Below, one piece after another: positions 5,801 to 51,792 of a stretch of 64,000 bases of DNA. The stretch spans positions 19,341,648-19,405,647 of the forward strand of contig NC_092673.1 of NCBI RefSeq assembly GCF_964355755.1. Reading direction: 5' to 3'. Each line of letters begins with the position of its first letter. Position 1 is the first letter of the stretch. The stretch comes from Antedon mediterranea. Taxonomy: Eukaryota > Animalia > Echinodermata. Position numbers and translations under genes: made by a program. Below the pieces are notes generated by a model, which saw only the letters and a program-made list of their open reading frames with translations, ran no database searches and was not told the DNA's origin.

Positions 5801-8359
5801 ATTTCTATATATACCCAGTTGTTTTAAATGATGTAGGCTTTACTGGAATTTGACGATGTAATAATAGAATTCATTTTTGAGAAAGTGTGAATTGCTAAAC
5901 TGCAGCTGATATGCAGATCTGAAACATTTACATATTGTTACGGAGTTCATTTTTGTAAACCAAGATACAGGAAAATGTCAGATGAACATTTATAGAAAAA
6001 GAATATCTTTTAAATACAAATTTAATTGGTAGGCCCTAGTGTCATTTTTAAAATTACTATATAAGTCGATTAATTGATTTAAAGTACAATCTGTAAAATA
6101 ATAACAATTTATACAGTATACAGTAGCCTAAAAACAGTAGCCGTAGGATGTATTTAAAAAATAACCAAATACCCTATCTAAAGTAGTGGAGCTGTAGCTT
6201 GGTGGTTAACATGCTTGCCTTCCAATCCCAAGTTCCCGGGTTCAATCCTGACCTAGTGCCAGGCTTGTAACTCACGACTCTTTCAACTCCACTCCTTAAG
6301 CCTTAAGTGAGACTTAGTTTATAATCACGATAAATTATAAAATAGTTTATCCACACTGTAATTTCACGATGAAATATATGTTTTTATAAAGCTCCTATCC
6401 TCATATTAAAACAAAATCATTAATTTTTTTTTCAATAATTTATACCCTCCAACAAGTCATGCATAATGTGTGCATTGTGTACCCCACAACAACACTAAAT
6501 ACTAAAATTTTGTCTACAGGCTTTAAATAAAACTACACAACCACTATTATTTGAGATCAAAATGTTGCATAATTTTTGGATATAACAATTTTTGATTAAA
6601 CAGTTTATACAGTACCCTACTTATTGTTACCAAGAAATGCAAAATATGTTCAATAAATTCAAAGTTATTAGCGAAAATGTTACCCCTTACCCCATAATTT
6701 TTAAGGATTACAAATTACTAATACGGTCAAAATTCTTCATATTGTTAGGGCCTATACATGTTTATTTGTGTTTAATCTTTAACTTTAATTTGTACTTGTA
6801 CATTGTCTTTATAGGTTTAAAAAAAAACACCAGTTTGTAATAGATTTGTTGTATTTTTGTGTTTAAAATTGAAACTTTATTAATGTTAAATTTGGACGAA
6901 ATTGTATTTTTTGTTAATGTTCAATGATCCTTTGACCTACAATGATGTCAATATGTTACGTTTTATTTTTTCAACATGAATAACAATTAGGCAACCTACA
7001 CAGTACATTATTAATACAAAAAAATGCAAATTTGATCACTAAATACAAAGTTATTAGAAAAAATGTTGCCCCTTACCCTATAATTGTTAATAACAAATTA
7101 TTAGTAACGGACAAAATTTCTTCATAAATTCATAGAATATTTGTTTGTTTAATTTCAATTTTCTTATTCATTGTGTCTATATGTTTAGGAAAACATCAAC
7201 ATAAGATCTTTTGTAAGTTTGTGTTTAAAATTGAAATATATAAGTTAATTTAGAAGAAATTGCATTTTTGATTGAAGGTCATTGACCTTTTGACCTCTAA
7301 AGACGTCAATAGATGCTGGATTCATTTTAAAAAAGTATATTACAATAATGAAATCCATACACTACATAATGATAACATAAAAATGTAAATCTGTTCACTA
7401 AATCTTAAGTTATTTGCAAAAACGTTACCCCCTACCCCATAATTGTCACAAATTACTAATGACTAACAAGTTTCTTTATAATGCACAGCATATTCAATTT
7501 AGAAAAAATGTTAAATTCAATTTTCTTATTTATTGTGTCTATAGGTTTAAGAAAACATTAGTTTGCATAAGATTTCCTGTTTTTTGTGTTTAAAATTGAA
7601 ATTTTTAAAACTAATTTAGAAGAAATTGCATTTTTTATTAAAGGTCAGTGACCTTTTGACCTCTAAAGATGTCAACAAATGCGGGATTCATTTTTAAAAA
7701 GTATATTACAATTAGGCAATCTATACACTACATATTGATAGCAAGAAAATGCAAATCTGTTAACTAAATTGTAAGTTATTTGCAAAAATGTTACCCCCTA
7801 CCCCATAATTGTAAACGATTACAAATTACAAAAACAAAAAAATGTCTTCATAATACACAGCATATTCATATTTTGTTAATCTTTAACTTCAATTTTCTTG
7901 TTTATTGGGTCTATATGTTCATGAAAACATCAGTTTGCATAACATCTATTGTATTTTTTTTGTTAAAAACTGAAAGTTATACGTTAATATTAGACAAAAA
8001 ATCATTTTTTATTAAAGTTCAATGACCTTCTGACCTCTAATGGCGTCAATAATTGTTGGATTTACTTAGAAAAATATATTACACTTAAGCTGTCTATACA
8101 CTACATATTGATACCAAGAAAATGCAAATCTGTTCATTAAATCCCGAGTTATTAGCAAACGTGTTACCCCCTACCCCAAAATTTTGTGGTGCATATTTTC
8201 CGTAGGCGGTGTTATATAATCCTCAAAAATGACTATTAAGCTGTACAATTGGCATTGCTATCATGGATTTCTAAAAAGTAGACATATTAAGCTTTCCAAA
8301 AATGTATGGTAGCATTTGCCACCAATTTGATACCGAAAAAATGTCTGGCCCATGGACTA
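2858..8359. mobile_element. Non-autonomous foldback DNA transposon with ~2.2-kb TIRs, Academ-like (TAG..CTA termini, 3-bp TSD)
   Basis: Termini tagtccatgggccag / ctggcccatggacta. TSD TGA (2855-2857, 8360-8362) is confirmed by the empty site in the right arm (~21748). Arms are built of ~365-bp subrepeats (ggggtagggggtaac at ~3050, 3421, 3788, 4142, 4511). The superfamily call rests only on termini and TSD. Confidence 0.85.
6188..6340 (+). mobile_element. tRNA-derived SINE / pseudo-tRNA head (Gly-TCC-like) inside the foldback
   Basis: ggagctgtagcttggtggttaacatgcttgccttccaatcccaagttcccgggttcaatcc with A box (tagcttggtgg) and B box (ggttcaatcc). The acceptor stem is not intact, so this is not a functional tRNA. 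Confidence 0.6.
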
Positions 8360-24377: not shown

Positions 24378-24726
24378 ATGGAAAGGTACGTTTGTTTTTT
24401 ATTTCAAATCCAACAAAAATAACCAGCTCCAATATGTAAATGTTAAAAACAAATTAAAATGTTTGAATAGTTAGCAATACTTTAAAACTTTCTTAAAAGA
24501 TTATGAAATTATAAATATTACAAATAAAGGGCTCATTCTCATCAAATATAATGATGATATTGATTATTTCCATCAATCATCATTTTCATAAAATAGTGTA
24601 ATAAATCATTATTTCTTACATTTTAACAGGAACAAATTAGAAAAAGCTTTGTTGTACAGGGGTGATTTGCAAACAATTAAACAAATTTGTAAGACGCAAC
24701 CAGATCTTGTGAAATCTATCAATGAG
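24378..24726 (+). CDS. Start exon and N-terminal capping ankyrin exon of the ANK-ROCO gene
   Basis: ATGGAAAG|gtacgt (24378-24385) joins ttttaacag|G AAC...AAT GAG|gtataa (24630-24726), giving MERNKLEKALLYRGDLQTIKQICKTQPDLVKSINE. It ends in phase 0 and so joins any downstream GxTPLH exon. Confidence 0.75.
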
Positions 24727-27700
24727 GTATAATATTATCAAAGAAGAAATTTAATTAAAGTTTAAAATTATAGAGATTGTAATTTTCTTTATTATTTATT
24801 ATAACATTTTTTTATATAATGAATTACAATTATTTTTCAATATCACACTAATGATGTTGGTAAGACCTGCATGCACTGATTAACCACATTAGGCTAAAAA
24901 TAATAATATAAATACACACTGATGATGGGGATAACCTGCATGTACTGATTAACCACATTAGGCTAAAAATAATAATATAAATACACACTGATGATGGAGG
25001 TATAACCTGCATGTACTGATTAACCACATTAGGCTAAAAATAATAATATAAATACACACTGATGATGTTGGTATAACCTGCATGTACTGATTAACCACAT
25101 TAGGCTATAAATAATAATATAAATACACACTGATGATAGGGGTATAACCTGCATGCACTGATTAACCACATTAGGCTAAAAATAATAATATAAATACACA
25201 CTGATGATGGAGGTATAACCTGCATGTACTGATTAACCACTTTAGGCTAAAAATAATAATATAAATACACACTGATGATGGGGGTATAACCTGCATGTAC
25301 TGATTAACAACATTAGGCTAAAAATAATAATATAGATACACACTGATGATGGGGGTATAACCTGCATGTACTGATTAACAACATTAGGCTAAAAATAATA
25401 ATATAAACACACACTGATGATGGGGGTATAACCTGCATGTACTGATTAACAACATTAGGCTAAAAATAATAATATAAATACACACTGATGATGGAGGTAT
25501 AACCTGCATATACTGATTAACCACATTAGGCTAAAAATAATAATATAAATACACACTGATGATGGAGGTATAACCTGCATGCACTGATTAACAACATTAG
25601 GCTAAAAATAATAATATAAATACACACTGATGATGGGGGTATAACCTGCATGCACTGATTAACCACATTAGGCAAAAATAATAATATAAATACACACTGA
25701 TGGGTATGGCAAGCCTCAGCTGTCTGGAGTATTCAAAATATTATATTATTATATCAGAGGTCCCAAATTGGGAAAGTCCATTCGCAGGAGATTTTGTCGT
25801 GAACCACATTCAATTCGTCGGGGCGTCGAAAGTCAACGCGCAGGGAATCGAAAATCAACACGCGTGTCGTTTACGTCTCTTAATTAATTAACTAAATATG
25901 TTACATATACAGTATATACAATATTTACACATAAGTTTGCTTAATTTTTACATAGGTTTATCCATCAGTATTTTTACATTCTTATTTTTTTTATGGACAC
26001 ATCCTCAGTACAAAGAATTAAAAAAATATATACTGTATTTTAACTAAAATTCAGTATATAAAATAATTTAACTTAATTACATAGGCACAGGCCTAGCCTA
26101 GGGCTTCTACTAGGCCCTAGCTAGCTACCATTTTAACCCCCCCCCCCCCAAAAAAAAAATAATAATAAGAAATAACTATTCCGAATCCGTCTTATGCTAC
26201 ATTACGCGAGTTAACATATTATTTCAGATGAAAAACATTGAGTTTTATATTGTTTTATCCATACGTAATTACACTGGCATTAAAGATATAACATTAAAAT
26301 GTAGGCCGTTTATGAGCTATTTCGCCGATTTCTTATCGCTGGGAAATTCCCCACCATCGACATCGATCGAGGAGTAGGCCTAGGCTAGAATAGAGGCCTA
26401 GCGTGCATGCCGGAACGGGTGGATTATTGCTATATAAATAACAAGTTTGAACAAAAGAGCTTACAACAATCTTAGGTAAATTTTTATTAAACGTAGGCCT
26501 ACTTGCTTGGCGAATCCATATGCTCGTATTATCGGATCGTACAGTAAAACCAAATAAAACACCGCCTCAACAACCTCGTGCGATGTGCGATCTGTTGTTC
26601 TTTGCAGCGGATCAACATTGGTAGAGTCCATTAATTATGAGGGTGTTTAAAAATGTAATAACTATTAAAAACGTGTCTCAATCACTGTGTAATCAAAGCG
26701 TTTATTTAGTTAAAACTTGGATCCTCCCAAAATTGATAATCGCGTATTCCGGTGACCACGTGATTGATTCACGGTTGGTTGCACGCTCTTTTTTTTCTAC
26801 GTCCGGCGTGTAGTAACCGTGCATGTTTATATTATTGTTACGGTTTAACAAAGGCAGTGCATACAAATAAAAATACAATAATAGACCACAGAGACTGCAT
26901 GAATAGACATTGTTTCAACATCCTGCCTCACTTTTGTCTAGTTATTTATTGATTATTGTTGACCTGGGCTGAGCCTGGGTGTAACCGTAAATCAATTTGG
27001 CCAAAAATATGGGGAAATTTGAAAATGCGGTAAAAAAAATCAAAATGCGGTAGAAAACGTTGAGATAGCGGTAGCGCGGTAGATGGGTTCTAAAAGCGGT
27101 AGACTACCGCGAGTAGCGGTAGACTTGGGACCCCTGTTTTCACGCTACATCACAAGAGAGGACTCAATCAGATATAAAGCAAGCAGCAATTTTAGGACTA
27201 TAGTTTATAGGTCCCAGCTGCTGGACCCAAAAAACATCTGGGAAAAGTGTCTATGAGGGTTCACGGTTGAACGATTTTGGATTCTTGCCCTTTGATTGGT
27301 TGACTTCAATGCAAATGGTTTAACCTAAATTTGTTATCGTATCTAGTTTAACTTAATTATGATATTAGTTTCATTGGGTGTTAAAAATCAGTACCAAAAG
27401 TATGTACCAACTTTCTCTACCATTGAGTAAATATTCTAGAAGTTGCACTTAATTTACTGAAATTTCTCATTACGCAAATTTATATATAAATTCATTAAAC
27501 TGCTTATTGGCCTCATATTTTTAATATCTGAACATTTGTTTGTACAATTTTATGAAAGTATTTTTTCTCATTACGCAAATTTATATATTAATTAAGTAAT
27601 AGGCTAACAAATCTCTAGATCTGATCCATGGTAAGATAATCTATTAAACCCAATTTCACATAATGTCTGTTGTCGGTATTATACACCAGCAAATTTGCAA

Positions 27701-30700
27701 AAGAAGGTAATGTACAGGGATTTGCTAGTGTAATAGGCTAACATTATATAGATATGCTGTGGTAAACCATTCTATTTTGTTCTACTCATTTATTAATAAT
27801 GATAATTATGATTATTTATCACAATATTTAGTAGCAATTGTTGTTGTTTGTATTGAAAAAAAAAACAAACAATTTTACATAATGTCTGTTGTCAGTATTT
27901 ATAAACTTTATTATGATTCCTTTCCAGAATGGTGACACTCCATTACATTCATATCTGGGGAGCGGATATAGATCTACCTTAGAAATAGTGACTTGTCTCA
28001 TTCAGCATGGGACACCAGTAGCATTGCAAAATAAGGTAATGTACAGGGATTTGCTAGTGTAATAGGCTAACATTATATAGATATGCTGTGGTAAACCATT
28101 CTATTTTGTTCTACTCATTTATTAATAATGATAATTATGATTATTTACCACAATATTTAGCAGCAATTGTTGTTGTTTGTATTGACAAAAAACAAACAAT
28201 TTCACATAATGTCTGTTGTCAGTATTTATAAACTTTATTATGATTCCTTTCCAGGATGGTGACACTCCATTACATTCATATCTGTGGAGTAGTATGTATC
28301 CACCTACCTTAGAAATAGTGACGTGTCTCATTCAGCATGGGGCACCAGCAACATTGCAAAATAAGGTAATGTACAGGGATTTGCTAGTGTAATAGGCTAA
28401 CATTATATAGATATGCTGTGGTAAACCATTCTATTTTGTTCTACTCATTTATTAATAATGATAATTATGATTATTTACCACAATATTTAGCAGCAATTGT
28501 TGTTGTTTGTATTGAAAAAAAAAACAAACAATTTCACATAATGTCTGTTGTCAGTATTTATAAACTTCATTGTGATTCCTTTCCAGTCTGGTGACACTCC
28601 ATTACATTCATATCTGAGGAGTGGATGTACTGCACCTACCTTAGAAATAGTGACGTGTCTCATTCAGCATGGGGCACCAGTAGCATTGCAAAATGAGGTA
28701 ATGTACAGGGATTTGCTAGTGTAGTAGGCTAACATTCTATAGCAGGCCTCGAATTTTACCGCGGCCAGTGCCGTCGGTGCCCTCCCAGTTGGCCTCAATG
28801 CCCTCGAAAATTAATAGCACCCACGGCCACTACTGGCCTGCCCTTTTTTTGCGTTGGCCGTGAGTGCCCTTCCCGAGTTTTACCACAATAAAAACCACTA
28901 AAGTAGATAGAAAATAATGTCAAGAATATCGGACGAGGCGCAAAACTATCGCCTGTCTTCGTTGCAAGGGGATTTCCCTAAACGCATTTAGAGAAAACAT
29001 CGAACATATTTATATAACCAAAACAATATCGTCCCGGCCGCCGTGCGTGGTAAATAATGGTATAGATAGTACATTAAAATACAGGGGTGTACACTTTTAA
29101 TAATAAAGCTAAAAACGTTCCTCGATCGGAGGTCACTGAAAGTATTAAAGTCGCACCACCCCCGCCTCAATAATCGAGCTAGCCGCCTTCGTTGAAAAAA
29201 AAATTACACGCACTCCTTGTCCTAGCCAGCCTATCCTCCCGCCGCCGATCCGATCAACAAACACACGCGATTCAATACATTGGGAAAACAATTCCATTTG
29301 ACGCACACGCACCCTCTGATAAGAAATTTCACACGACGTCGTCGTACGTGTGAGAGTACGAAGGATCGGTCGTTGGAAAAACAATTCCTTTTGACGTACA
29401 CGCACCCGCTGATATGAAAATACCATGTGCGTTCCTGCATGGTGTAGTCCATTCCATTATACGTGTAAAATTAGGGGTGTCAACTTTTAGTACTAAAGTT
29501 AAACCGGTACCTCAACCCGAAGATCGTTGGAAGTATATTGTATTTATATTTTATCGCACCCACCTCAATAATCCAGCCGACAGATCATCGAAAAATCTTG
29601 TTTAACGACGTCGTACACTAAATTAACAAACGCGTTTTTACCGAACTCAAGGAAATGGTATAGTCCACAATACACGTGCAGAAGGCTAAACGAGAGAGAG
29701 GGGTTGGCGTCCGTCCGTCCGTGTTTTGAATTCTTATGAATATGGATTATACTAACAAAAAAGCTTCAGAAATCGAAACTCGGAAAATAACAATAATTTA
29801 TATTCTACAACATAATGTCATTGGCTTGATTTTTACCGTGGTTAACACTCTGTGTATGAATAGTTGTAGTTAAGGCCTACAAACAAATTGTTTTTGTAAC
29901 CTGTGTTCTCCGTCCGCTACGCCTTTAGTGCTGCTAAGTGCTTGCTGTTGTTAGGGTCTTTACCCGTTGGGCCTGGCTTCACATGCCTTTTTTTGATCGC
30001 ATTGTTTGAAACTAAACGAAACAACTGTGAACGCTAAACATCGTACCTTAATAATTATTATTTATATGGATCGTAAATACACGTAATATTTATATGAAAT
30101 ACAAAAAGATGTAGACAGTCCTCTCCTACTACTACTACGCAATCTGATGAATAGGGGAAATACCCCCAAAAATGTTTGCGGGTAGAATTTTTTTTTTTGA
30201 AAAAAATTCCACCCGGGCGCTCAACCGGAAACAAGCTATTTTTAAATTTTGGCCTATTTATTAAAATATTTTTTAATTTTGGCCTTGGTGCCCCTTCGAT
30301 TTAAAACAAATGGCCTTGGTGCCCTCCCATTTGGCCTTGGTGCCCCTCAAATCAATGAAAACCGGAGGCCAAATGGCCTTGCCCCTAAAATCCCCAAATT
30401 CGAGGCCTGCTATAGATATGCTGTGGTAAACCATTCTATTTTGTTCTACTCATTTATTAATAATGATAATTATGATTATTTACCACAATATTTAGCAGCA
30501 ATTGTTGTTGTTTGTATTGACAAAAAACAAACAATTTCACATAATGTCTGTTGTCAGTATTTATAAACTTTATTGTGATTCCTTTCCAGAATGGTAACAC
30601 TCCATTACATTCATATCTGGAGAGAAAATATCCACATACCTTAGCAATAGTGACTTGTCTCATTCAGCATGGGGCACCAGCAACATTGCAAAATAAGGTA

Positions 30701-33700
30701 ATGTACAGGGATTTGCTAGTGTAATAGGCTAACATTCTATAGATATGATGTGGTAAACCATTCTATTTTGTTCTACTCATTTATTAATAATGATAATTAT
30801 GATTATTTACCACAATATTTAGTAGCAATTGTTGTTGTTTGTATTGACAAAAAACAAACAATTTCACATAATGTCTGTTGTCAGTATTTATAAACTTCAT
30901 TATGATTCCTTTCCAGTATGGTGAAACTCTATTACATATATATCTGTGGGCTGGATATACTGCACCTACCTTAGAAATAGTGACGTGTCTCATTCAGCAT
31001 GGGACACCATTAGCATTGCAAAAGAAGGTAATGTACAGGGATTTGCTAGTGTAATAGGCAACATTCTATAGATATGCTGTGGTAAACCATTCTATTTTGT
31101 TCTACTCATTTATTAATAATGATAATTATGATTATTTACCACAATATTTAGTAGCAATTGTTGTTGTTTGTATTGTAAAAAAACAAACAATTTCACATAA
31201 TGTCTGTTGTCAGTATTTATAAACTTCATTATGATTCCTTTCCAGTCTGGTGACACTCTATTACATTTATATCTGGGGAGTGGATATAGACCTACCTTAG
31301 AAATAGTGACTTGTCTCATTCAGCATGGGACACCATTAGCATTGCAAAATAAGGTAATGTACAGGGATTTGCTACTGTAATAGGCAACATTCTATAGATA
31401 TGCTGTGGTAAACCATTCTATTTTGTTCTACTCATTTATTAATAATGATAATTATGATTATTTACCACAATATTTAGTAGCAATTGTTGTTGTTTGTATT
31501 GACAAAAAACAAACAATTTCACATAATGTCTGTTGTCAGTATTTATAAACTTTATTATGATTCCTTTCCAGGATGGTAACACTCTATTACATTCATATCT
31601 GGGGAGTGGATATAGACCTACCTTAGAAATAGTGACTTGTCTCATTCAGCATGGGACACCATTAGCATTGCAAAATAAGGTATTGTACAGGGATTTGCTA
31701 GTGTAATAGGCTAACATTGTATAGATATGCCGTGGTAAACCATTCTATTTTGTTCTACTCATTTATTAATAATGATAATTATGATTATTTACCACAATAT
31801 TTAGCAGCAATTGTTGTTGTTTGTATTGACAAAAAAACAAACAATTTCACATAATGTCTGTTGTCAGTATTTATAAACTTCATTATGATTCCTTTCCAGG
31901 ATGGTGACACTCCATTACATTCATATCTGAGTAGTGTATATGCACCTACCTTAGAAATAGTGACGTGTCTCATTCAGCATGAGGCACCATTAGCATTGCA
32001 AAATAAGGTAATGTACAGGGATTTGCTAGTGTAATAGGCTAACATTGTATAGATATGATGTGGTAAACCATTCTATTTTGTTCTACTCATTTATTAATAA
32101 TGATAATTATGATTATTTACCACAATATTTAGCAGCAATTGTTGTTGTTTGTATTGACAAAAAACAAACAATTTTACATAATGTCTGTTGTCAGTATTTA
32201 TAAACTCCATTTTGATTCCTTTCCAGAATGGTGACACTCTATTACATTCATATCTGAGGAGTGGATACCCTACCTTAGAAATAGTGACGTGTCTCATTCA
32301 GCATGGGACACCAGTAGCATTGCAAAGTAAGGTAATGTACAGGGATTTGCTAGTGTAATAGGCTAACATTCTATTCTATTTTGTTCTGGTTTACCACATT
32401 ATTTAGCAGTAATTTTTACTGTATTGTCTCATATTATGGCATATCTGCAGCATTGCAAAATAGGGTAATGTAGGCTTACAAAGAATTGTCAGGACAATTT
32501 CACATTTTATTGTTATCAGTATTTATAAACTTCAACTTCAGTATCAATTAGCCTCCATATTAATCAATAGTATTACTACCTCAAAGAGTAGTATTATTTA
32601 ATCAGACTTACAGATATAGAATTCTCAAGTGTTTGATTTTTTTCACATTTTTCTCTTTTTACACATAGCACATTCTAACAAGTTTGTTTTGATTTAGATA
32701 TTCATTTATAAGTCAACTATAATTGTAATGTGTTGTTGTTGTTTTAATATTTCATTTGTATCTGGATAGTATCCAAATATTATTTTCTTTGAAAGTTTAT
32801 AGTAAAACTATTTGTTGTTTTATATTATGGCTCAAACATTTTAACACATCTACCTACTGTTCCAAAGTAAACTTTTATTCAATTTATCTCTCTCTCTCTC
32901 TCTCTCCTCCATCTTTCAATGTTGAAGGCGGTAGACTATAAACAGCAGCACTCAAGTTTTGGTTTGGATACAGGAGTTATAGGTGGCGCACTGTACAAGT
33001 TGATGTCATTTATTAGCAAATAGTAATTTCTATTCACGTCCTAATTTACAACCAATGTTAAAAAATAGTAAATCTATGTGTTATCACATGATGCTCTTTC
33101 ATCCAATCTCTAGATGGTAAATGTTTGAGCCATGACATAATACTGTATGTATGTGATGCATAATTAAAGTGTGTTATATTGTATATCAATAATTTCTCAA
33201 AACTACTAATAACTAAACCCATTTTTTTAATAGGATGGAAATACACCTGTCTCTCTTTTAGAAAGTAACAGGTGGATAAAGGAGCATAGTAAAACTGAAA
33301 TTTTAAACTTCTTAGAAGGTAAGTGAAGTTTTAATTATTGAAATTTTAGGATCAACTAGTTTCATTGCAAACGATAACAATTTGACTTCTTGTTCCAAGT
33401 GAAGAAGAATGTCCAGATAAAGAAAATTAACATTTATGATATATCATTCACAGGTTTATTATAGATTAAATAATTCAGTGGGATAGTAGTATACATGGAA
33501 GTTGTGATATGTTGCAAGATGTAAATTATTTTGCTATTAATACGATAAAAATAACACAAAAACGCAAACTTTAAAATTCCTTTGAAATAAAAATATTAAA
33601 TAAATCATTTTTCAAATCAAATCAATCTCTTTATTCAATACATCAAAACAGTACACATAACAAAAATAAAGAGATTTTAATGATGATGATGATGATTTTA

Positions 33701-36700
33701 AGATGAAAGGGACCTTCAATAAACCTCAAGGGGCTTTTGATAGGAGGCTTTACTTTAAACTAGTTACAATAATCGGATGGGGGATATGCATTGTTAAGGA
33801 ATATTTGAACTTTATTAATTGCACATAAATGTAAAATGTAGATTTTTTTTTTTTAATGTAATCTATTTTATATATAATGTACAATTGGTATTCGCATTCA
33901 AGGCAAACAATTTACGATAGGAGGAGATAAATATTGAATATAAAAATCTAATTTTCTTGTTAAATCCCAGTTTTTGTTTCCACAATGGATGAATTTCCTT
34001 CACACATTTTAAATAATAATTCGTCTTCTTCGAGGAGCTGAATCACCGGATTTTCAGCGCGCCGTGCGTACCAGGTTACTACCGTAAATGATGGCGCTTA
34101 ATTAAAAGTTCTTAGTAGATATAGCTCTATATCTATTAGCCTTAAAAGTTATCCCCTTAATAGATTTAGCTCTATTACCTATTAAGCACCTACTAATAAG
34201 TAGATTTTAGGTAGAATTTAGATAGTTCCTAATAGGTTTTACCTCATTAGCATAATTCAAAACCCCCACTAATAGTGTTAGATAGTTTTTTCACTATTTT
34301 CAATCTGTGAGTAACACAGTTGTATGCATCTATCTATTGTCTACTATAATAGCTATACCATGGGCTACCAGCAACCTATTAATAGACATAAACAAACTGA
34401 TAATAGCCAGTAACTGTTAATAAGCTATCTATTTTATACAATAGATAGATATGGACTACCAGATAGCTATTAGAAATCTATGAGTATCATATCTATCTAT
34501 CTACTGTCTACTTATTATAGCTATACAAGACTACCAATGACCTATCAATAGACTATAAAGAAACTGATAATAGCCAGTTAAATATTAATCAACTATCTAT
34601 TTTATAGCTGGGAAGTAGTCGTTCCATCATTGACTCATTGAGTTAAAATCCTTAGTAGGCGAGATAAAAAGGTCTACTAAAAAACTACTAAAAATAGAGC
34701 TATTTCTCCTTAAGTCTACTTAAATCTACTAATTTTTTTACTATGGGTAAAACCAATAGACAAATTCAAACTCTTCCTTCCCACATTCGCATTCGAGGCA
34801 AACAATTTACGATAGGAGGAGATAAATATTGAATATAAAAATAAAACATTTTCTTGTTAATCCCATTTTTTGTTTCCACAATGAATGAATTTTCTTCACA
34901 CATTTTTAAGCCAGCTTAAGAATACTATTTTTCTGTATGTAAAATTAAGCATCATACATGTGTTATTCTAAACACCAAGTCCCACAAAGCATAACCAAGC
35001 TCTACCAAGTGTATAAAGAACAGTGCCCTTATTGTAGGCCTTTAAAAATGCAATTCCAGGTCTATATTGGCAAAATTCAGCCCAAACCATGGTGGGCTCA
35101 AGTTCAAGTTATCTTTATTGTGTTTTCACACAGGTATAAAAACAAAATTGGTTACTGGTCATAAAACAGAATATAAATTAAAACATTTAAAAAGTTCAAG
35201 GCATATTAAAAACTTACGATAGGTGGTCAATAATTCCTACTGCCAAATTGTGAATCATACCAGTTATTCATTTCAGGATTACTTTATTTTCACTTTACAC
35301 AGTGAAACCATCCTAATCAACCGTATGTTGCTAGAAACGATTTAGATTCAGGATCTCTGTCAAAAAATGTTGCATAACGCCTATATGTTTGGATGAGTTT
35401 GAGTTCCACACATTTTTTAGGACATTAATAACTGTAGTTGTTAACTGTATACATTTTAGTTTAAAAAAATACATTATTATTATAGTATCCAGAATGAATG
35501 AGATTTACCATTTTCATGTACAGTCGATTGCTTGTACACAGTCACCCACAAGCTTTTATATAACCTTATACCATTGAAAAAGTTTAAAGATACCATATGA
35601 CAATTCAAGAGTTTTGCCAAGCTGTGACTTTTAATATAGTGTTTTTTATGAAAATATGTAATATGTAATATTTTTGTTTTGGTATTTTTTTAGATTTACC
35701 AAGTACTGTTGATGAGCAATTTCAAACACAATTTCAGAAACCGACAAGTGACAAACAGAAAACAAAACTTCGTAAGCCAGAGAGTGGTGAGTTTAATAAG
35801 AATCACAAGAGCTGCTGTATGTTGTATGATTGTATCTATATATAAATTTACGTAAGGGCAAAAACGGTAAATCGTGCGTTATTTCTAGAATGTTTACTCG
35901 ATGGTATATAAAGTTGGTTCGTACTTTCGGTACTGATTTTAACCGCCTGATGTAACCCTGTTTACTAATTAAATTGAGTTCGATTATTAGTTATTGACGA
36001 TTAAAACGAATTTAGGTTCAACGATTTGCCCCAAATAGGGGTGTTTTCCGATCGTGGTATACACTGTCTAATGGATGTCAATTTGAAAAATACCCGCACA
36101 CAATAATACGAGGACACTTCGCATTTTCCTATCTCCTCCTACGATAATTGTTTTTAATAGCTGAAAACCGGTTGACCAGTTCGAGTACAGTATCATGATG
36201 TTGAAGACAGGCCGATTTTCTTTAAAAAATGCTATTTTGATACATGTAATATACGTTTTTACAAATGTATTGATTTGTGATGAATGGAACATTCCAAATT
36301 ATTTTGTTTAACCATAGAGGTATAGATTTAGATTTATGGGCCCCCTTGGAGAATAAACATAAATAGTATTGCAATGCTGTACAATACTGTTAAGGTATTA
36401 ACCACTTTTGATCGCAATTTGAATCGCAAATTTCTTACTGTGAGTGTTGGTACTGTTAGATATAATATAAACAAATATACAAATAAACTTTATTACTGTG
36501 AGTGTGGGTAGGCCCTACTGTTAGATTATAAACATATAATATACAAATAAATAAACGTTATTACTGACAGTTGCTTCTCAACGTTTGTATTAATTAATAA
36601 TTTAAAAATATATAAACGTACGTAGTGGTGTATCGTTACATGTACTTTACTATTTCAATCGACTATGACAGTGAGAGTTTTAACAAAGTATTAAATCGTA

Positions 36701-39700
36701 AATGTTTTACTGTATTTAGTGGTATATTATTTATAGGCCTATAAAACATTAAAAACAATATTTCGTTACTGAGTGGATAAGAATATATTTTAAAATGTTT
36801 CCTCTTTGTACCTATCTTCTTCCCCCATACCTCAACCCTTAATGTTACATACAAAACACAAATTGGGTTTGTTTAAATGAGTCCAAATAAAAAAATTTGA
36901 CTCATTTTGTTTCTCTCTCGGAAGTAATTCCCAGGGTGCTAATTTTAGCTGACTACATAAATCATCGTGTATATTTATTCGTTTCTGTAAACGACAATGT
37001 ATTATAGTCCTGCAGTACGTACATTTGAAATCTCCATTTTTTTCTCGCTGGAAAATACTGTGTATTTGAGAACCATCTGTAGGCACGGTCGACCTAGATA
37101 GTACGCGAGCGAAGCGAGCGTGCCATCTAGTCTATATATAATTTAACACAATTGTGATTAAAATGGGATTTCAGTAAGGAGAGAATTAGACGCTAATGTT
37201 ATTTAAAAAAAGCATTATTTCTGTGCAGTACTGTAAAAAAGGTAAAGTCGAAACCTAAGCTAATGCTAACGGCCGTGGTGCCCATCTCCATTTCCTTAGC
37301 GTTTGGGCCAGACTCCACTAAGTGTGTATGTTCGTGGGGGGTACGCCACTCCTCCCGCACAAACGAGTCTGATTTACCTTCCCAGTACTTTTTACATACC
37401 GGTACCCATTTCTATCACCTGGGTGGGGAGGAACAATGTGGATAAAGAATCTTGCTCAAGGACTCAACACTGCAGTGACCGAGCCGGGGCTTGAACCGAC
37501 AACCTCTTGATTGCAAGTCCAATGCTCTAACCACTGCGCCACAGTGCTCCAATAGTACTGTAAAAAGGCGAAAAAGTGTGCAACTAATAACAAATGGAGA
37601 GATTTTATTTATCATAAATAAAACAAACAGTTGATTGTTTCCATCCAAAATACTGTAATAATGGAATGGAGCTAGTTTGCAGATTTATGTGGCATGCTTG
37701 ATTGATGATTTTTTTTTTTAACTTTATTTACTCCAGATGTTTTAAAAATCTATTAAAATCTTGATTCAATTTTCAGATATTCCATCTGATATTGCTGCTC
37801 GTGAATTAGAGTATCAGGAAGCTTACAAGGAAGCTTTGAAAGGAGGATCTGTCGCAGTCAATCTTGGAATGCTTAAGGTGATTGGACAGGAAGGAGTGGG
37901 TAAAACATGCCTCATAAATGCCTGTCTTGGAAAGATGTAAGTAGTTGGACAGTAAAATTGAAATTACAAAATACATGTAGGTACTGCCTAATTATAACAA
38001 TAATAGATAATAGAATTAAATTTTAACATTGTTTTGTAATTTTAAATGAAAGATCATTTTAATTGTTGACTAAATAACTGATTTAAAATGTGTATTTTAT
38101 AAATAAAGACTATTGAAATAGTAACTACTGGTATCTATAATTAAAAAGAGAAAATTTAATTTTACAGCACTAAAAATGAATGACATTCATTGTTGGTTTC
38201 AAATTATTATATTATTATTATATGTATCTCAGATTTGAGGAAGAACATAAAGTTACAGATGGCATAGCAGTGATAAGGACTGTAAGCACAACATGGACAG
38301 AGGCTAAAGCTGATAGTGGTAAACATGAATACAAATTAGCATATTACTCTTCCCATCATCATAGTCAATGTAACAATATTTATCTTTGATCTCATTATCA
38401 TAGACACAAACAGGCCCACATGGAGACATAGAATGGAATTCAATAAATGCATACAACTGTAGTATGGTGTCAACAGTCATATTTTCACATACATTACAAT
38501 TGTTACTTTATGATCCCTTAACATGCAATCTATTGTTTGTTGATGTACTGTAATTGTAATTTTACATTAAATAATCAATCAGTTAAAGTATTGTCACCTA
38601 TTAATGTATCTGCTGAAATAATACATACAAATGTCTTTTTTCTGTACAGGTAATCCTTCAAAACAGTATACAAAAATCGTCACTGACAAACTGAGAGAAA
38701 AGAAAACCAAAGACGTATGTCAGTGTAATGAAAACATAAAATGAATAAAGTAGCACCTACAGGACTATTGCAAACCAGACACTTACGCACGTATTCTTAA
38801 ACCGGACTGTAGTCGTAGTTCTAGCTAAAACTAAAAAAATGACGTCATTTTAATTCATAAACCGAACTTCAACTAAATCACCGACTAAATCAGGCCAACC
38901 TCGACTAAATCGAGACGGATTTTGATCGATTTTTTTAGTCCTGGAGGGGGCAGGCTAAATGGTCGACTAAATGGTTTTTAAACGATGTTTATAAAAAACG
39001 TAACAGTCATTGAGTTGTTATATTGGCCAGATATTGAAGAATGAAATATCTATATTTATATTAGCTTAATTAAATATACATTGGTATAAGTTATAATAAT
39101 GAAAATCATCTTTATTTACAACTGTATACAAATTACATTATTTTCTTCGCGCAAGTCCGACTTGAACTACGTCACGCCATAGCGACAATGGGAGATGCGG
39201 CAATTCACCACGCGATGGAATGTTTAGGGGGCCTAGCGCTTTCTTGTCACGCTAGGAAGTGCGTGGTTCGTCGCGATCATACTTTGTTGGAGGCCTAGAA
39301 AATATGAAAGTTACCGTACCGCCATGGTTCCTAAATATATTTTAAAGATTTTGTTTGTTGTTAATCAAAAGTACTTCACTGTTAAATTAATACTGATCTT
39401 GTTCTAATAATTAACGATTAAAATTATTTTTCATGTATAGTCCTGATGCGTAAAAAGTTTTGTAAGAAAATGGAAAGTGATATCAATGCGCAAAATTTCG
39501 TCTGCTCCTCAAATACTCTCTTGTCATTGGCCAATGTTTAGCCTTTGTTACCCAGACGTGTGCAACTCGACTAAAAGCTCGACTTCATTAAGTCGAACTG
39601 CAAACTTCGACTACTTCGTTTTTTAATCGAATTTTAAGTAATAGCTCGAACTACGACTTTTTCAAGTCGAACTTCGAACTACGACTAAAGTCCGGTTTAA

Positions 39701-42700
39701 GAATACGGGCGTAAGGGTTTCTTTCTAAATGAATCAATGAGGCATTATGATTCTTTTTCAATCATTTTATAATCCAATTTACTTAAAAAATTAAGTTGAT
39801 TTTGCTTTTGAGAGTAAATAATATTAGTTTTCTCTTATATTAAATTGTAAACAATACTGTATTTAACTTTGAATAAACATTTGTTTCTTTTTTATATCCA
39901 TTTATTTTTTTTTTATGTGTCAGATTGACATGAAACCACCTATAGATGATGAGGATGGTATTGTTGTTGATGACAACAATGGTGATTACAAAAATGATGG
40001 TATGTAACTTTCCATTAAATTCTAATTATTATTATTATATATTACATAGCCTATGTAAATACGCGAACGTGATTGGTTGAAACTGCATCACATGACTACC
40101 GCTGCGAGGATAGTAAATCGTATATATCCTCGAGAACGATGATATTGACTGAGTAATTTTCCCGTAATTATCGTGTCCCCTGTCATTAATCATATAAATT
40201 ATCGAGTACGATGATATTGACTGTGTAATTTTTGTGTGCAACATTCGCGTTTGCCGATAAATAAACAAAACTATTTAAACTATGCATACATAGCGCCCTC
40301 ATTTATTTTTAGTCCTCCCAAGAGGTGATGAAACACCGTTTGTGATTGGTTAATACTCACAGTAGTATCGGGTACGCGCGCGACGCACTGAACATCTGGT
40401 GATGATTCGACTCGAAAGAAGACGAATTATTATTTATTCGGCCTACCTGATAATATTATTATTATTAATGTAGGCTTATTGATGGAAATTCTTCTGTTAT
40501 TATTTAAACGACCTAGGCTAGTGAATATGTTATTGTCAAGGAATCATTAATTAGTAATTATCTGTATATTATTCTTCGAAAGGTAAGGTGTCTGGGCAGC
40601 TTGTTTACATACAATACAAAAAGGAGGCCTACCTAGCCTAGCTACCCGACCCAGCAGATATTCTACTTATTGTAATATATATATTATATCGGTAAAATAT
40701 AAGATTAGACATCCCCTCGGGAATGATATTAAGTTCTTGGGAATTATATATTTCCCTCAGCTGGCGCTTCGGGAAATATATATTCCCTCGAACATAATAA
40801 TATTCCCTCAGGGATGTCTAATCTTATATTTAGCCTCTAAGCAGTCAATATCTGTATAATATTACATTTTTTGTAGTCAAAACACTAATTTGCAATTATC
40901 TGTTTGCAATTTCTGTCATATTAAGTTTGTGCTGTAGTTATTTGAAACAGATTATTAATTAGATTTTCCAATTTAAAGTAACTTTTAATTTTTCTATAAA
41001 ATTATTAAATTTATGTGATCAGAGTTGGAGGTAAAGCAACCTATCAAGTGTAACAATTATGGTGACATACTTTTCTACCTCTACTCTGACTATAATGATG
41101 ACAACAATGATGACGACTCGGTGTAACAATGATTATGAAGACTGCAATGATGATAATGACAACAATGATGATGACTCGGTGTAACAATGATTATGAAGAC
41201 TGCAATGATGACAACAATGATGACGACTCGGTGTAACAATGATTATGAAGACTGCAATGATGACAACAATGATGACGACTCGGTGTAACAATGATAATGA
41301 TAATGAAGACTGCAATGATGATAATGACAACAATGATGACGACTCGGTGTAACAATGATTATGAAGACTGCAATGATGATAATGACAACAATGATGACGA
41401 CAATGATGACGACTCGGTGTAACAATGATTATGAAGACTGCAATGATGATAATGACAACAATGATGATGACTCGGTGTAACAATGATTATGAAGACTGCA
41501 ATGATGATAATGACAACAATGATGATGACTCGGTGTAACAATGATTATGAAGACTGCAATGATGATAATGACAATTACAACAATGATGATAATCAGAACA
41601 ACTATAACAATATGTTAATGACTTTTACAATGATTAAAATAATGATGCTTGTTTACATGTGTTGAGAGTGACCAAATTGTGTTTCCACTACAGATACTGA
41701 TAGAGCTACTGAAGCTATTCCATTTGATACAGATCAGCAGTTAGATAAAGATGTAATCAAGAAACTTGAGGAAAAAAAGGAGGTCCCATTGGAAGAAACA
41801 TTTAACATCTGGGATCATGGAGGTCAATTAATATACCATGGTATACATCGCGTAAGTTATAATATATGTATTTGCCTTGAAGTTAATATTATATTGAAAT
41901 TGTTTAAATACTTTGTACAGAGCCAGTTAAAAGAAAATGTCTCTGTATATACTAACATAATGGTATGACCAAGGTTTAATTTGTTCATTCAGTAATCGCA
42001 AAATTCTTTCCATGGTACTGCTTTATATAAATTGGTATTACAAATTTTGCCTACGTCAACAAAAAAAGTATTTTCAGTAACTGTTTTCAATCACTGATTT
42101 TAACAGTGTTATATGAATTTGTACTAGAAAAATGCTTTAATAAAAAGAGTATCAATAGTAAATGTATAAACACAGTTTATAAAAAGACAAATAAAATGAT
42201 ACTTATTTATTAAGCCTTAAAGCATATTAATCAAATATTTGAATAAAAACAAATTGTGTTTTTGCAGATGTTCATGACATTACAAGCACTTTATATTGTA
42301 GTGTTCGACCTAAGTGTAGACCTCAATGATCCTGCTGTTTATATTGATTCCAATGGAGTAAGTATTTTGCTATATATTTTATGCATTACAAAGAGTTTTA
42401 TTTCATACCTTCCAAATGAGCTGCATACATTTACATATTTGAAACCTAACCGTTTTGATTTTAATTGTGGTTAGAAATCATTTACTTCTTCATTTCATTT
42501 TTAATTGAACAAAGATAAATGTTTTTTAAACTAATCTTTTTTTTTTGACAGGAAATGTATCAACATCATTGGACCAATCTCCAGTTCATATTATCTTACA
42601 TCCTGTCAGTTTATTCTCATAGTCGTATTGTGGAAGAAGATGAAGAGAATGAAGTTCACAAACCAACTATCCTTATTGTGGGTACACATAAGGGTAAGCT

Positions 42701-45700
42701 TGGTGAGACTGAAAAAGAACAAAATTATGAGGTTAATACTTACATTATTAAAATTAGCAATCAATCAAGTATACATTTCTGTTCTAAAAGCTAATGTAAA
42801 AAAACTAGCTACTAAGGTACTGTATCGAATACATTCATATCAAAAGTTTTTATATGAATGTATTCTATACAGTACTCTAATAGGACTTGAAGTATTTAGA
42901 TATTATTTATAAAAAAAAAACAGTTTTTACCCCATGTTTTCATTTATTTAAATTGTTTACAACCAGGCACAGAAGGCCTTTAAAAAGATTCGAGATGCAC
43001 TTAAACAGAAAGAGTTTATAAAACATGTGTTCCACGTATATTTTGCCGTTGAAAACAGCCAAGAAACTACAGATAAGAGCTTTAGTGATCTCAAACAAGT
43101 TATTGATGCACTTATGACTGCTTTAGAGAAAGAAGTTCCTTTAAAGTGGATGCGTTTTCGATGTGATCTACAAGATCTAAGGAGAAAAAAACATTTTTCT
43201 TTGTGTCCAGTTAAAGAGGTAAATTTAATTGGCATCATTCCTCAGTGTTTTGGTTTCAGAATAGAAATTTTTATTTTTTATTTATTTATTCAATTTTCTG
43301 CCATATACAATACAAAGAAAACAAAACAATTATAAAAGGAGGAAAGGAAAGACCAAACAGGTGCTAAACACCTATGCTAGTTGGTCAACCCAGAACATAC
43401 AGAGCACAGAAAGAAAGAGATAAATAAAAAAAATAATATTACGTCCTACAATTAAAGCATCTATAAAATATTTTGGAAATAGTAGTATTTAAAAAAGTAT
43501 AAACAAAAGACTCTACCCACTATTATATATAACTACAGTACTATATAATAATATTGATTATATTTTTTATTCACTGCTCTAAATCTGAATGGTAAAATAA
43601 TGTTAATGTAATATAATATAAAATATATAATCCTATCCATGCTGTTATGGTTTCCTATCTGAAAAAATCATGAGTATTTTTTATGGAATATTTGCATTGC
43701 AACACTAACAATGCATTCTGTGAGAAAAATTGCAGTTACGTTTCCCCCATCCTGAGAGTGACGTTTTCCTTCAGATCCAAAATTATACAGTACATGTTTT
43801 CAAGTAAATTTCAAAACATTTCAGGCGGTAAAGGACAAAACTAATGTTGGAAATGTATACCTACCTTTGGTTTAATATTTTTGATATTTTATTTGTATCT
43901 GAATTGTAAACAATTTTGTCTTTAGCTCAAAATGATGGCAAGTAAGAATGGTATTGCAGATGAAAAACAACAATCCTTTCTTCTTAACTTTTTGTACGAT
44001 CTTGGTGAAATTGTTTACAGGCCTGACAACAAATTATTGAAAGATAAAGCGGTGTTGGATCCGATGCAGCTGGTTGAAATTGTTACTACATTTGTGACGG
44101 TCGTTCCTCCCGAATTTCCAGTAAGTATTCTCATGAAAATGTTAATGCAGTGTTCTGTGAGGAAATAATAGAGGTACATGTGAATTCCTATAGGTGCTAT
44201 AGTATCAAAAGCAATATCTGATAGTTTCATTAGTTTAACATTGAGGGGTATATTGTATATTAAATGTAAACCATGTTATTGCATCTACAAGTCTTTATAA
44301 AGGTAAAGGTAAAGGTATTCATATTTGTCCTCAAGCTTAACTGGAAACTGAGGAAATTCGGATTAGGCCCTCCACGGACCCACGGCAGCCAGCAGTGCAG
44401 CGCCTACCAGATTAGCACACCGGGAGACGATCCCCTACTCTTTTCGAATAGTGTACCAAGTTCTTTAACGTGCACCAAGTTCTTTAATGTGCATCCTTTC
44501 AGATTCTAAATTGTTTGATAACTTAATAAACACAACATTCTAAGTATGGCTAATTGGTGGTGTTTTTTAGCCGGCCATGTATATCGATGCATTTGATAAA
44601 CTTGACAAAGGCATACTGGAAGAAAAGTTGTTGCGAAAATTATGGAAAAAGCGTGAAGTTGATGACGGAAAGAATTTTGAGTTTCTTGTAGCACTGATGA
44701 TTCAATTAGGTTTTATTTGTGAAAGGAAGACAACCAGCAGCCAAGATGTGGCAAGTACATCTACAGTAGGTTTTGTTCAGTTATCTTTTCTAACATGTTT
44801 TGCATGCAAGATTGTGTAAACAAAAATTGTTTTGGTATGATACATAATTGTTGAAATTTTACAAAAATTTCAAAATATTTGTAAGGTTATGACATATTTT
44901 GGTTAAACATCCTGCTGAAAGATGTTTTTATCATATACAGGAAATGATCTTTACTTATTAAAAGAAATCTAAATGGGATTTTATAAATCAACAATTTCAG
45001 GAATCTGTTGGAAAGCGATCATTCTTTGTGCCACTACGCCTTGCTTTCAAGACATCAAGTGAAGTGAAACCAGTGTCTGATGATTCACAATCTATCAGTA
45101 TCTATTACGACTTTAAGGGATATCTGCCAGATGTATTGTTTCCATATATGATTATTGATTTCCTCAACAAATTTCAAAAGAAAGGTGTTGACCCAATACT
45201 CTTGTATAACCATGCTGAACTTTACTTCGATCAAGATCATAATGTGACCTTATCTCTTGTGAAATTTGTGACTATGGAGGATGAAAGAAAGTTCTTGTTA
45301 AAGGTACTGTATCATATAATTTGTTGTGAATAAATCATAATTTAATCTAAGCATAAACTCAAATTAAAATATCAAAGCATCACTTTTCTTCTTTTTTCCA
45401 GGTGACTATTAAAAGAACTCCTGCTTGTAATGAAACAAGTAATGATGAACCCTCTTCTGAAGCATGTCAAGAGGTTTGTTATCATTTCATATATGCAAGG
45501 GCGGATCTAAATTTTCAAGGTGCCCTTTTTCAGAGGTTCAATATTTTAATCGTGTGACATATGTGGCAAATTCCATTTACCATGTCTCCGACCTTTAAGA
45601 GGGAGTGTGGCCTAAAATGGTTCAAATACTTAGGCTCGGAAGTGCCCTTTTCTTCTGGGAGGTAAACATTTGAGGCATGTAACATTTTGATAGTGATAAT

Positions 45701-48700
45701 TCAGATTTGTATTTTAGATAGTTATTCTATTTCTTATTGGTTTAATTATCTCTTTTATTGTATTGTACATTTTAAGAATTTTGTGCTGCTTATTCAAAAG
45801 TTGCTACATTGTGTGTTTTTATTGTCATATTGTATTTGTAGGTTTTGTTAACAATCCAGAAGTCATTTGAACCTTCTAAAGATGGTGGTAGAAGAGGCAT
45901 TCAATATGAGAGATGCATACTTTGTGGTGTATGTAGTGATAATACATCAGAAAAGAAGCACATTCAAAATCTTGATGACTTCCAATACGAGAAGTTGACA
46001 TGCACCAAAACTGACAAGTCTGTTACGATGGATGTTAGACGTTACCAGCGGCTATTTGGAGGTAAGAGTAATATAGATACAAGTTTATTTTCATTTATTT
46101 ATTTGACCAAAAAAACAATAAACTGAATGACCAATATGATTATTATGTAATGTAATTACTATCAGAATCATTATTGATAATCTATACATTGTTACAACAT
46201 GCTGCTATTAGCTGTGATATCTTCATTCCTCTTACCAGTAGTAGTACTATTAGAATCATTATTGATAATCTATACATTGTTACAACATGCTGCTATTAGC
46301 TGTGATATCTTCATTCCTCTTACCAGTAGTAGTACTATCAGAATCATTATTGATAATCTATACATTGTTACAACATGCTGCTATTAGCTGTGATATCTTC
46401 ATTCCTCTTACCAGTAGTAGTACTATCAGAATCATTATTGATAATCTATACATTGTTACAACATGCTGCTATTAGCTGTGATATCTTCATTCCTCTTACC
46501 AGTAGTAGTACTAGTAGAATCATTATTGATAATCTCTACTTACAGTAGTTAAAATATTAAAATACTGTATTAACAATCTATTTGTTAATGTCAAGATATT
46601 TAAAATTCAAAAATGTGAATGTTGGAGGTTCAATATTATAAAAATATTTATTTTTTTTATTTGACAAGAGTTTAATATGTTGGCTGTTAATGAATCTCAT
46701 TAGGATGCAATACAAGAATGTAGGCACAACAAGTAATTTGACCAATGGCAAGTGAATAAGCTCAGATGAGCTGTGCATTGCATCTTGGTGTGCATCCATG
46801 AGATACTTTGCTGGACCCAATGGTGTCCACTTACAGGAGGTTCAACTAATATTTTTTATTTTATTTGCAGATGAAACAGAAAGAAAAAGGAGAAATTCAG
46901 ATGAAGGTCAATTGATTGAAATAAGTAGATAAATTTTGCAAAATGTTGTACTTTTATGGACTCAATGATATTTAATTATAATAAAGTATTTGCCTTTGTT
47001 AATGCTGTGCTGCCCTCAATGACGATTGTTTGGATCTCTAGGATGCAACACAAGAACGTAGGCACAACAATAGTAATTTGACCAATGACAAGTATTAAGG
47101 ATTGGATAAGCTCAGATGAGCTGTCGCTTGTTGTAGATTACCCGCATAGCAATTTGATCTTTGTGTCTCAAGTGATTATAGTTAAACATGGTATGCAGTG
47201 CTCCTCCCCTCCCTTAACAAACACTCAATTGATACTATCAGCTGAATCTGTCATAAGTAGGCACTTTTATAAGCAGATACTTTTCTGGACCCAATGGTGT
47301 CCACTTACAGAAGGTTCAACTAGTGTAATATTTTTCATTTTATTTGCAGATGAAATTGGAAAGGGAAGAAAAAGAAGAAAAAGAGACCAAGGTGATTGAA
47401 ATATTACATATCAGATAAATAGATTATTTAAAAAAAAATTTAAATTGTAACTATGTTTTACTTTTATGAATGATAATTAACTAGTATTATAACATGGGTT
47501 CAAAGATGTATAGTAGCCAATCAGATGCGCTGAAATGAATCACATGGCGCTCTTTATTTTTTCACTATCATGCGATCACTGAAGTGGAAAAAGTTCCCAG
47601 CAAAAAAGCATAATACCACTGCGTGTAAACAAAGAATATATATCACAAGAATGAGTAATCCGCGATTTTCCCTGAACAGTAATATTGTCCATGTGGTAGG
47701 GCGCCGCCATAAGTGTGGATGTATCTGGGATGTATACAACTTTTTGTGAAGGTTTCACCATGGAGGTATACCTCCATGGTTTCACTAAATGCTGGACCAC
47801 CGGAGTATTTTCCGATGATAAAAATGTTATCAACTACATGCCAACATCATGTTAAATACTATTTGAATATTTAATTGTTCGTTTTATGCAATTTATTTAG
47901 TAAAAACTGCCGTATAAACAGTTTGATTTATCAACCGGGCGCTACGATAGCGTGACCGGGCGTGTTGGTGTTTACACGTTTTCACGAAGGATAGTTTAAT
48001 AATATTCCTATACTTAACTTGTTTCTGGTAAAACAAATAAATGTTAATGACATTTAACATTTTCTCCTATTAATAACATGTGTTTTATACTAATTTATAT
48101 CATAAAAACAATACTTAATTTACCGGGCGTACAGTAGTACACGGCAATTGTAAAGAATAGGCCGTGCTGAGTAATATTCGTTGATTTTTGGTGTTGCTGT
48201 GTTAGGCCTTTTTTGTGAACTAACTTAGCATGTTAGTAAATAATTGTCTGTAAAAGTGAATAAACACTAGTTTGTTAATAAATATGTATTATAAAATAGT
48301 TTACAATTGCAAAAACTATCATCATAATTCTATTTAATGTGACATGTATCATGTCTATTAAATCAAGTCTTATTTAGTATGTATACATCCGCCCTTATGA
48401 GGGCGGGCATCACTCACTGGAGCTCTCTGTTACAAATTTCTCATGCAAAAATCGCGGAATACTCATTCTTGTGATATATATTCTTTGGTGTAAATCATAT
48501 GGCAGAGATTACCGATCGTGCTAGGCATTGTACCATTTTCTAGGCTAGGCGGTGATTTGGTCGGCAAGCAAAGTGGTGATTGCTGCTCCTTAGGCCTTGT
48601 CGGTGATTTGGTCGCCGAGCAGAGTGGTGATAATAATTCATAGACCCATGTTGTAAAACAAATAACAATTCTAAGTTTGTGCATTACTGGAGATGCAACG

Positions 48701-50890: not shown

Positions 50891-51792
50891 GACACCAATG
50901 TGAACAAAGTGAAGGTAAATTATTCATAAATATTATACAAGAATGGGAGAAAAACATAAAAAAGTTTTAAAAAGAAAGATTATATGAATATAATGACATA
51001 GAAGTTGGTGATATTGAGGATGATATTACTCTAAAATTTAGGATTTATAATACACCGAATATAATAATGTAGATTATTATTATAGGAATAAAATAATAGT
51101 GAGTAGTTTTTTTGTAGTTGTTTCTAAAAGCTGATTATAGATATAGAAAATTGTTGAATTGAATTAATATTATAATCATATTCAAACAATGATGATGATT
51201 TAAACAATACTTATAACAATGCTGAATTTATTACTTAAAATTGAAAATGGTTTTGTGGACTTTCTTGAATTTTTATTCATAAATCTTAAAACAGTAATTA
51301 TGATAAGAATGCTATCTACTGAATTTATTACAAGAAATTAGAAATGATTTTGTGGTGTTCCATGAATTATACTGCAAACTTATTCAAATAATGATTATGA
51401 TTTCAACAATGATTATGATGCTAATCTACTGAATTTATTACATTGGAAAATATTGTGGTGTTTTATGAATTTATATTCATTATTCAAAATCTTAAAAAAC
51501 AATTACAATTTCCACAATAATCATGATAACTGTTATACTAAATTGATTGATACTGTTTTTCATTCGTATAGATCTCTCAGAGGATGATGATGAAGACTTA
51601 AGTCACAGACTTAGCCCAATGCAATAAACATGGACATCTATTCATACAAATGTTAGATGACGTTAAAGTGTTGAAAACTGGTACCAGTACAATCTATCTG
51701 TTAACTCTTTTATCTGTGAATTGAGTAGCGATTTGGTTGCGATGTAATGTTAGCGTGTCGTACTAAATTTCCCCTTGTTTTATGAGAAAGTA

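Follow-up and report, generated by a model that had tools for sequence, protein, structure and literature searches.

The crinoid Antedon mediterranea carries, in a 64,000-nucleotide (nt) stretch of contig NC_092673.1 (positions 19,341,648 to 19,405,647, hereafter the window; all coordinates below count from its first letter), nine consecutive exons that each encode one ankyrin repeat. An earlier note on this DNA had proposed that these exons, here called cassettes, might be freely combined by exon skipping, which raises the question whether the locus generates diversity by splicing or in the genome itself. We consider it fairly probable that the cassettes arose recently by tandem copying of one exon-plus-intron unit and that their common frame merely accompanies this origin, with diversity produced mainly at the DNA level and skipping being partial at most.

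The ankyrin cassettes and the gene they belong to

All nine cassettes lie on the forward strand and begin and end in phase 0: A1 (27928..28035, 108 nt), A2 (28255..28365, 111 nt), A3 (28587..28697, 111 nt), A4 (30590..30697, 108 nt), A5 (30917..31027, 111 nt), A6 (31246..31353, 108 nt), A7 (31572..31679, 108 nt), A8 (31900..32007, 108 nt) and A9 (32227..32331, 105 nt). Every length is a multiple of three (9/9), open in frame 0, and each cassette covers nearly the full Pfam Ank model (E 2e-5 to 6e-3), three of the nine scoring above the curated cut-off. Each repeat is encoded by one symmetric exon. The 13-nt acceptor motif is identical in 9/9 cassettes, and the donor reads GTAATG in eight of them and GTATTG in A7. 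In the exon model the N-cap exon (24630..24726, forward strand, phase 2 in) leaves in phase 0 and the C-cap exon (33234..33318, forward strand) is entered in phase 0, and 512/512 cassette subsets translate without a stop, giving 512 distinct proteins. In these respects the earlier note was borne out. Two truncated remnants accompany the array on the same strand, namely the 3' end and donor of another cassette without its acceptor (27684..27706) and a degenerate 26-nt piece of a cassette 3' end (32447..32472, 92%); no minus-strand cassettes were found in the window.

The cassettes form the front of a larger, intact ankyrin-Roc-COR-DED-like ROCO gene, all exons of which are on the forward strand. 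A 30-exon model spanning 24378 to 50891 is open for 1316 codons up to a single terminal stop and encodes, in this order, the N-cap, nine ankyrin repeats, the C-cap, a linker, Roc, COR and a death-effector-like end. It extends on both sides beyond the stretch considered in the earlier note. Coding begins upstream of the exon at 24630, the start codon at 24378 lying in a separate exon (coding end 24378..24385, Met-Glu-Arg, phase 2 out), the same N-terminus being present in the paralogs P0015, P0019 and P0020. Likewise, 33318 is not the gene end, the C-cap leaving in phase 1 and the gene continuing to 50891. Behind the linker exon (35694..35786) follow the Roc GTPase exons (37777..43218). The first of these, the P-loop exon (37777-37936), is identical to paralog P0016 at 52/52 positions, and P0016 matches Pfam Roc at 3e-14; taken alone, single Roc exons of the window score weakly against Pfam Roc (E 0.04-0.08). 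Among the COR exons (43926..46061), one (43926-44120) matches Pfam COR-A with an E of 1.2e-7, slightly below the cut-off, and a close relative, P0006 (75% over 753 amino acids (aa)), is above the cut-off for Roc and COR-A alike. Two features of ROCO genes, a Roc domain and a COR domain directly after it, are thus present. The exon with the death-effector-like domain(s) (50172..50711; Pfam DED 0.0023, below cut-off) has 98-99% identity to P0001 and P0002. All matches of this last large exon (12/12) are Antedon mediterranea models, the best of them 98-99% identical and none exact, and it is in Antedon that the gene has its closest relatives. The last coding exon with the stop is located at 50871..50891.

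Two observations concern parts of the gene behind the cassettes. A 58-base-pair (bp) tandem array rich in GAT and AAC lies inside a Roc intron (41098-41630); paralogs contain Asp/Asn-rich inserts of variable length at this point of Roc, and the array may conceal further small exons. Two short phase-1/1 exons (46871-46906 and 47350-47391), about 480 bp apart, encode basic peptides resembling nuclear localisation signals. The pair appears to be a local duplication, and the paralogs vary in this region.

Origin of the array and variation in the DNA

The tandem arrays have a period of 327-330 bp with 94% matches, the repeat unit being a block of about 327 bp composed of exon and intron. The eight array introns measure 218-221 nt, an insertion of 1667 bp being set aside, and show a mean divergence of 2.4%, the value for the cassette exons being 11.3%. 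Variable columns amount to 28/102 (ungapped) in the exons vs 13/219 in the introns (Fisher P 3e-7).

Judging from this likeness, we regard the nine symmetric exons as copies of one unit, so that they count as one event and not as nine independent observations. Their shared phase and splice sites would result from this origin, because a tandem duplication in an open frame demands a symmetric unit, and the symmetry therefore needs no explanation by splicing. Phase symmetry by itself is ordinary; symmetry is also seen in 11/19 of the model's remaining internal exons (7 of these 0/0), and introns at the boundaries between repeats are common in ankyrin genes. Most likely, the interchangeable frame results incidentally from the copying of one exon-plus-intron unit.

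Within the cassettes, nonsynonymous differences (pN 0.133) exceed synonymous ones (pS 0.048; pN/pS about 2.8, codon bootstrap P 0.014), values that pool non-independent pairs with few synonymous changes. The most variable cassette codons are 1, 3 and 11-17. They include positions 3 and 11-13, which are those differing among aligned repeats of designed ankyrin repeat proteins (DARPins), where the variable positions form the binding face. Together these patterns point to diversifying selection on the repeats. In a four-gamete test with eight units, 37/91 informative site pairs failed, indicating a misfit to one tree, although recurrent change can imitate such a signal of recombination. Of the possible sources of diversity at this locus, shuffling in the DNA under diversifying selection has the best support.

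The 1667-bp insertion is located in the intron between A3 and A4 (28743..30409). It has terminal inverted repeats of 14 bp, and its 6-bp target duplication is palindromic. It is likely a non-autonomous DNA transposon. Without it the intron comprises 219 nt like its sister introns; the insertion is younger than the unit duplication.

Splicing of the cassettes and competing explanations

Among the public runs listed as matching, none is registered as RNA, which does not count as evidence. Joints between exons were detected in run X1, which is guessed to be RNA and in which introns are covered, too (29/30 bins). One contig contains the joint from the C-cap to the linker (33318 to 35694, GT..AG ends), and in three contigs a cassette end is joined to a cassette start, with cassette-type borders as in A9. 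The predicted borders are in use, in the studied gene or in paralogs at a likeness of at least 80%, and cassettes are joined together. One cassette served as reference in this search, so that serial use and skipping are not separable. The joints of run X1 are not among the 15 of 220 joints displayed for the DNA runs, which is an incomplete control. Further joints (32113 to 32390, 32069 to 32373 and 32372 to 32169) fall within introns and could stem from array ends or from paralogs. Contig depths (higher in cassette bins than in the flanks; 31 for cassette joints vs 110 for the C-cap joint) were left unused, as depth equals neither copy number nor expression.

Annotated isoforms were looked up for nine ankyrin-bearing Antedon clusters. 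Eight of these have one model, and the ninth has two RefSeq isoforms (XP_071957837.1, isoform X1, 295 aa, and XP_071957838.1, isoform X2, 259 aa), whose sole difference is one whole 36-aa repeat. By its sequence this pair fits the skipping of a single cassette in a paralog, and cassette skipping is therefore plausible in the family. What stands of the proposed combinatorial splicing is the frame compatibility, the presence of the predicted borders at joints of spliced contigs and the skip annotated in a paralog, but not a skip in the studied gene itself.

Splicing could contribute far more if cassettes were skipped frequently and in combination, one allele giving many ankyrin arrays of varied length and order. 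All 512 subsets being open and distinct, the near-identical splice sites without inherent preference and the one-repeat skip annotated in a paralog agree with splicing as a main source of diversity, as do Ectocarpus ROCO genes, for which up to nine transcripts with differing sets of leucine-rich repeat (LRR) exons are reported (PMC11378527). We nevertheless consider this rather unlikely, given the single model in eight of the nine clusters and the possibility that the annotated skip is a read-mapping artefact. Scored with a crude matrix derived from the gene itself, the cassette donors reach 4.5-7.2 (median of 20 other donors 6.9) and the acceptors 3.1-9.6 (19 others, 7.0); these values are within the range of the other exons, so that no unusual weakness of the sites is apparent. 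Furthermore, shuffled versions of the intron unit fold equally well (z 0.28). Improbable in our opinion is an extension of this idea to a natural DARPin library, that is, ankyrin-Roc-COR-DED immune sensors whose arrays would be shuffled in the genome and re-assorted in each cell by stochastic skipping. The earlier note had also thought of Dscam-like diversity, and arthropod Dscam1 indeed resembles the locus in its tandemly duplicated, frame-compatible exons for variable binding surfaces. Dscam1 is defined by the choice of one exon per cluster together with docking-selector pairing and attains 38,016 isoforms (PMC8791459). In the crinoid locus, cassettes are joined to one another, the number of domains would vary and the ceiling is 512 isoforms. 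A mutually exclusive choice of one cassette per transcript by pairing of a docking site with selectors is extremely improbable, even though the 27 nt that directly follow the N-cap donor show 74% complementarity with sequence upstream of several acceptors, as in the geometry of Dscam exon 6. This duplex is weak and AU-rich (-8.8 kcal/mol), and the pairing test (112 and 120 nt beside the caps against 80 nt of one intron, doublet-block shuffle) stayed at background, the best duplex being equalled by 14/50 shuffles on the N-cap side and by 12/50 on the C-cap side; no pairing signal was found in the tested stretches. An intron-to-intron AU-rich quasi-palindrome reaches -15.1 kcal/mol, a figure without a shuffle null. 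The cassette-to-cassette joints in the three contigs, from the studied gene or paralogs, make exclusive choice unlikely and would largely refute it if they stem from this locus, and paralog models string many cassettes (up to at least 11) in series. Of the likeness to Dscam, some skipping is plausible, but exclusive choice is not sustained. The window is also rich in tandem arrays, several of them within introns of the studied gene, and the cassettes might accordingly be a neutral minisatellite-like expansion or in part an assembly artefact, having no role in diversity. We regard this as very unlikely, since all nine exons are open, indels comprise whole codons and the changes concentrate at amino-acid-changing sites; moreover, every cassette copy is distinct, one intron has a unique insertion and cassette sequence is contained in four public runs from two samples.

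If, as we favour, the array arose by recent copying and diversifies mainly in the DNA, the close likeness of the introns would favour unequal crossing-over and gene conversion, and such exchange would add, delete and mix whole repeats with the frame unbroken. The residues of the predicted binding face would be diversified by selection, and most transcripts would contain the cassettes serially, occasional single-cassette skips resulting in shorter in-frame arrays. The product is likely a cytoplasmic sensor whose ankyrin array binds a ligand, whose Roc-COR part switches and whose death-effector-like end signals, and the nine cassettes are likely the fast-changing, ligand-binding end of this signalling gene. 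We infer the recombination mechanism, the selection and serial inclusion as main product in this way; a role as immune sensor is suggested by the predicted domain order, the expansion of the family and the apparent selection. Several points weigh against this explanation. The 'mostly serial' inclusion is a prior and not a result, and a cassette-to-C-cap joint is absent among the five joints listed for run X1, contigs proving presence and not absence. The one-repeat isoform pair in one of nine clusters may speak for skipping in the family, and several LRR-exon combinations are reported for brown-algal ROCO genes of like build (PMC11378527). The pooled pairs behind pN/pS and the recurrent change mentioned above belong here as well.

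Related genes and meaning of the locus

The gene family has expanded in Antedon and also occurs in Anneissia. The paralogs are known as protein models alone, their exon borders being deduced; the serial cassette-type repeats in these models number 2, 2, 2, 3, 4, 8 and at least 11. P0016 combines the identical P-loop exon with different cassettes. Repeat number and content vary among close paralogs, and the units are mosaic. XP_071964198.1, XP_071964214.1 and XP_071948802.1 (Antedon mediterranea / Anneissia japonica) have the same domain order as the studied gene, and the ankyrin-Roc-COR(-DED) proteins of these species contain, as here, a repeat of 35-38 aa ending in QNK. The nine-cassette array itself was in none of the returned models of the two species. 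The Anneissia models examined have one clear repeat of the QNK type before the cap and, upstream, at most more divergent ones.

At 194-691 on the minus strand lies a paralogous start exon with N-cap, in inverted orientation (92% over 498 nt) and with matching intron arrays of 31 bp and 71 bp. This paralog extends beyond the window start, which indicates a second family member head to head with the first, about 24 kb away. P0020 (XP_071947615.1) comprises two tandem Roc-COR modules after two ankyrin repeats and is either an annotation fusion of neighbours or a real double ROCO protein. Many long ankyrin-plus-Roc proteins from metagenome assemblies (ENA) match through the repeats alone.

Two further elements were observed in the window. 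An element resembling a long terminal repeat retrotransposon lies on the minus strand at 58289-62639, with 185-bp direct repeats that are 99% identical; by eye it is putatively copia-like. Two 366-bp satellite arrays (2894-4009 and 7218-8333), 95% complementary and 3.2 kb apart, form an inverted pair, possibly the two termini of a foldback-type element.

The one-repeat-per-exon design is already known from brown algae, with LRR and tetratricopeptide repeat exons. Brown-algal LRR-ROCO genes (PMC3341825; PMC11378527), the closest known system, share with the crinoid gene a Roc-COR core, a sensor whose symmetric exons encode one repeat each, differences in repeat number and content between close paralogs, a candidate immune role and an excess of amino-acid change at likely binding positions. 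For Ectocarpus ROCO paralogs the same picture of DNA-level diversity is reported in Zambounis 2012 (PMC3341825), and splice variants of brown-algal LRR-ROCO genes are reported in Teng 2024 (PMC11378527). There are also differences: the repeats here are ankyrin, in phase 0 and of 105-111 nt, whereas the brown-algal LRR exons are in phase 2 and of 72 nt; the host is an animal and the protein has a C-terminal DED-like domain, unlike the brown-algal ones; and reverse-strand cassettes, none of which are in the window, occur in Ectocarpus at 19 loci. A further likeness exists to fungal NLRs with high internal repeat conservation (PMC13449251), whose repeat sensors are homogenised by recombination and yet diversified, as here. 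Tuber ankyrin NLRs combine an ankyrin sensor with splicing variation and alternatively spliced mini-exons. In contrast to our gene, the fungal proteins have an ATPase core instead of Roc-COR, and the Tuber exons are codon-sized and not whole repeats.

No description of an ankyrin version in a crinoid ROCO gene was found in the literature searched, subscription papers being largely outside the search. In this locus an animal has a clear equivalent of the brown-algal ROCO genes with one repeat per exon; ankyrin replaces LRR, and conserved introns are combined with diversified exons. As the nine cassettes are all different, DNA shuffling and splicing could in principle be told apart as sources of diversity. 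If the natural DARPin library were true, each coelomocyte would possess a separate repertoire of specificities, coupled to a death-effector output. The locus points to a candidate family of immune receptors in crinoids.

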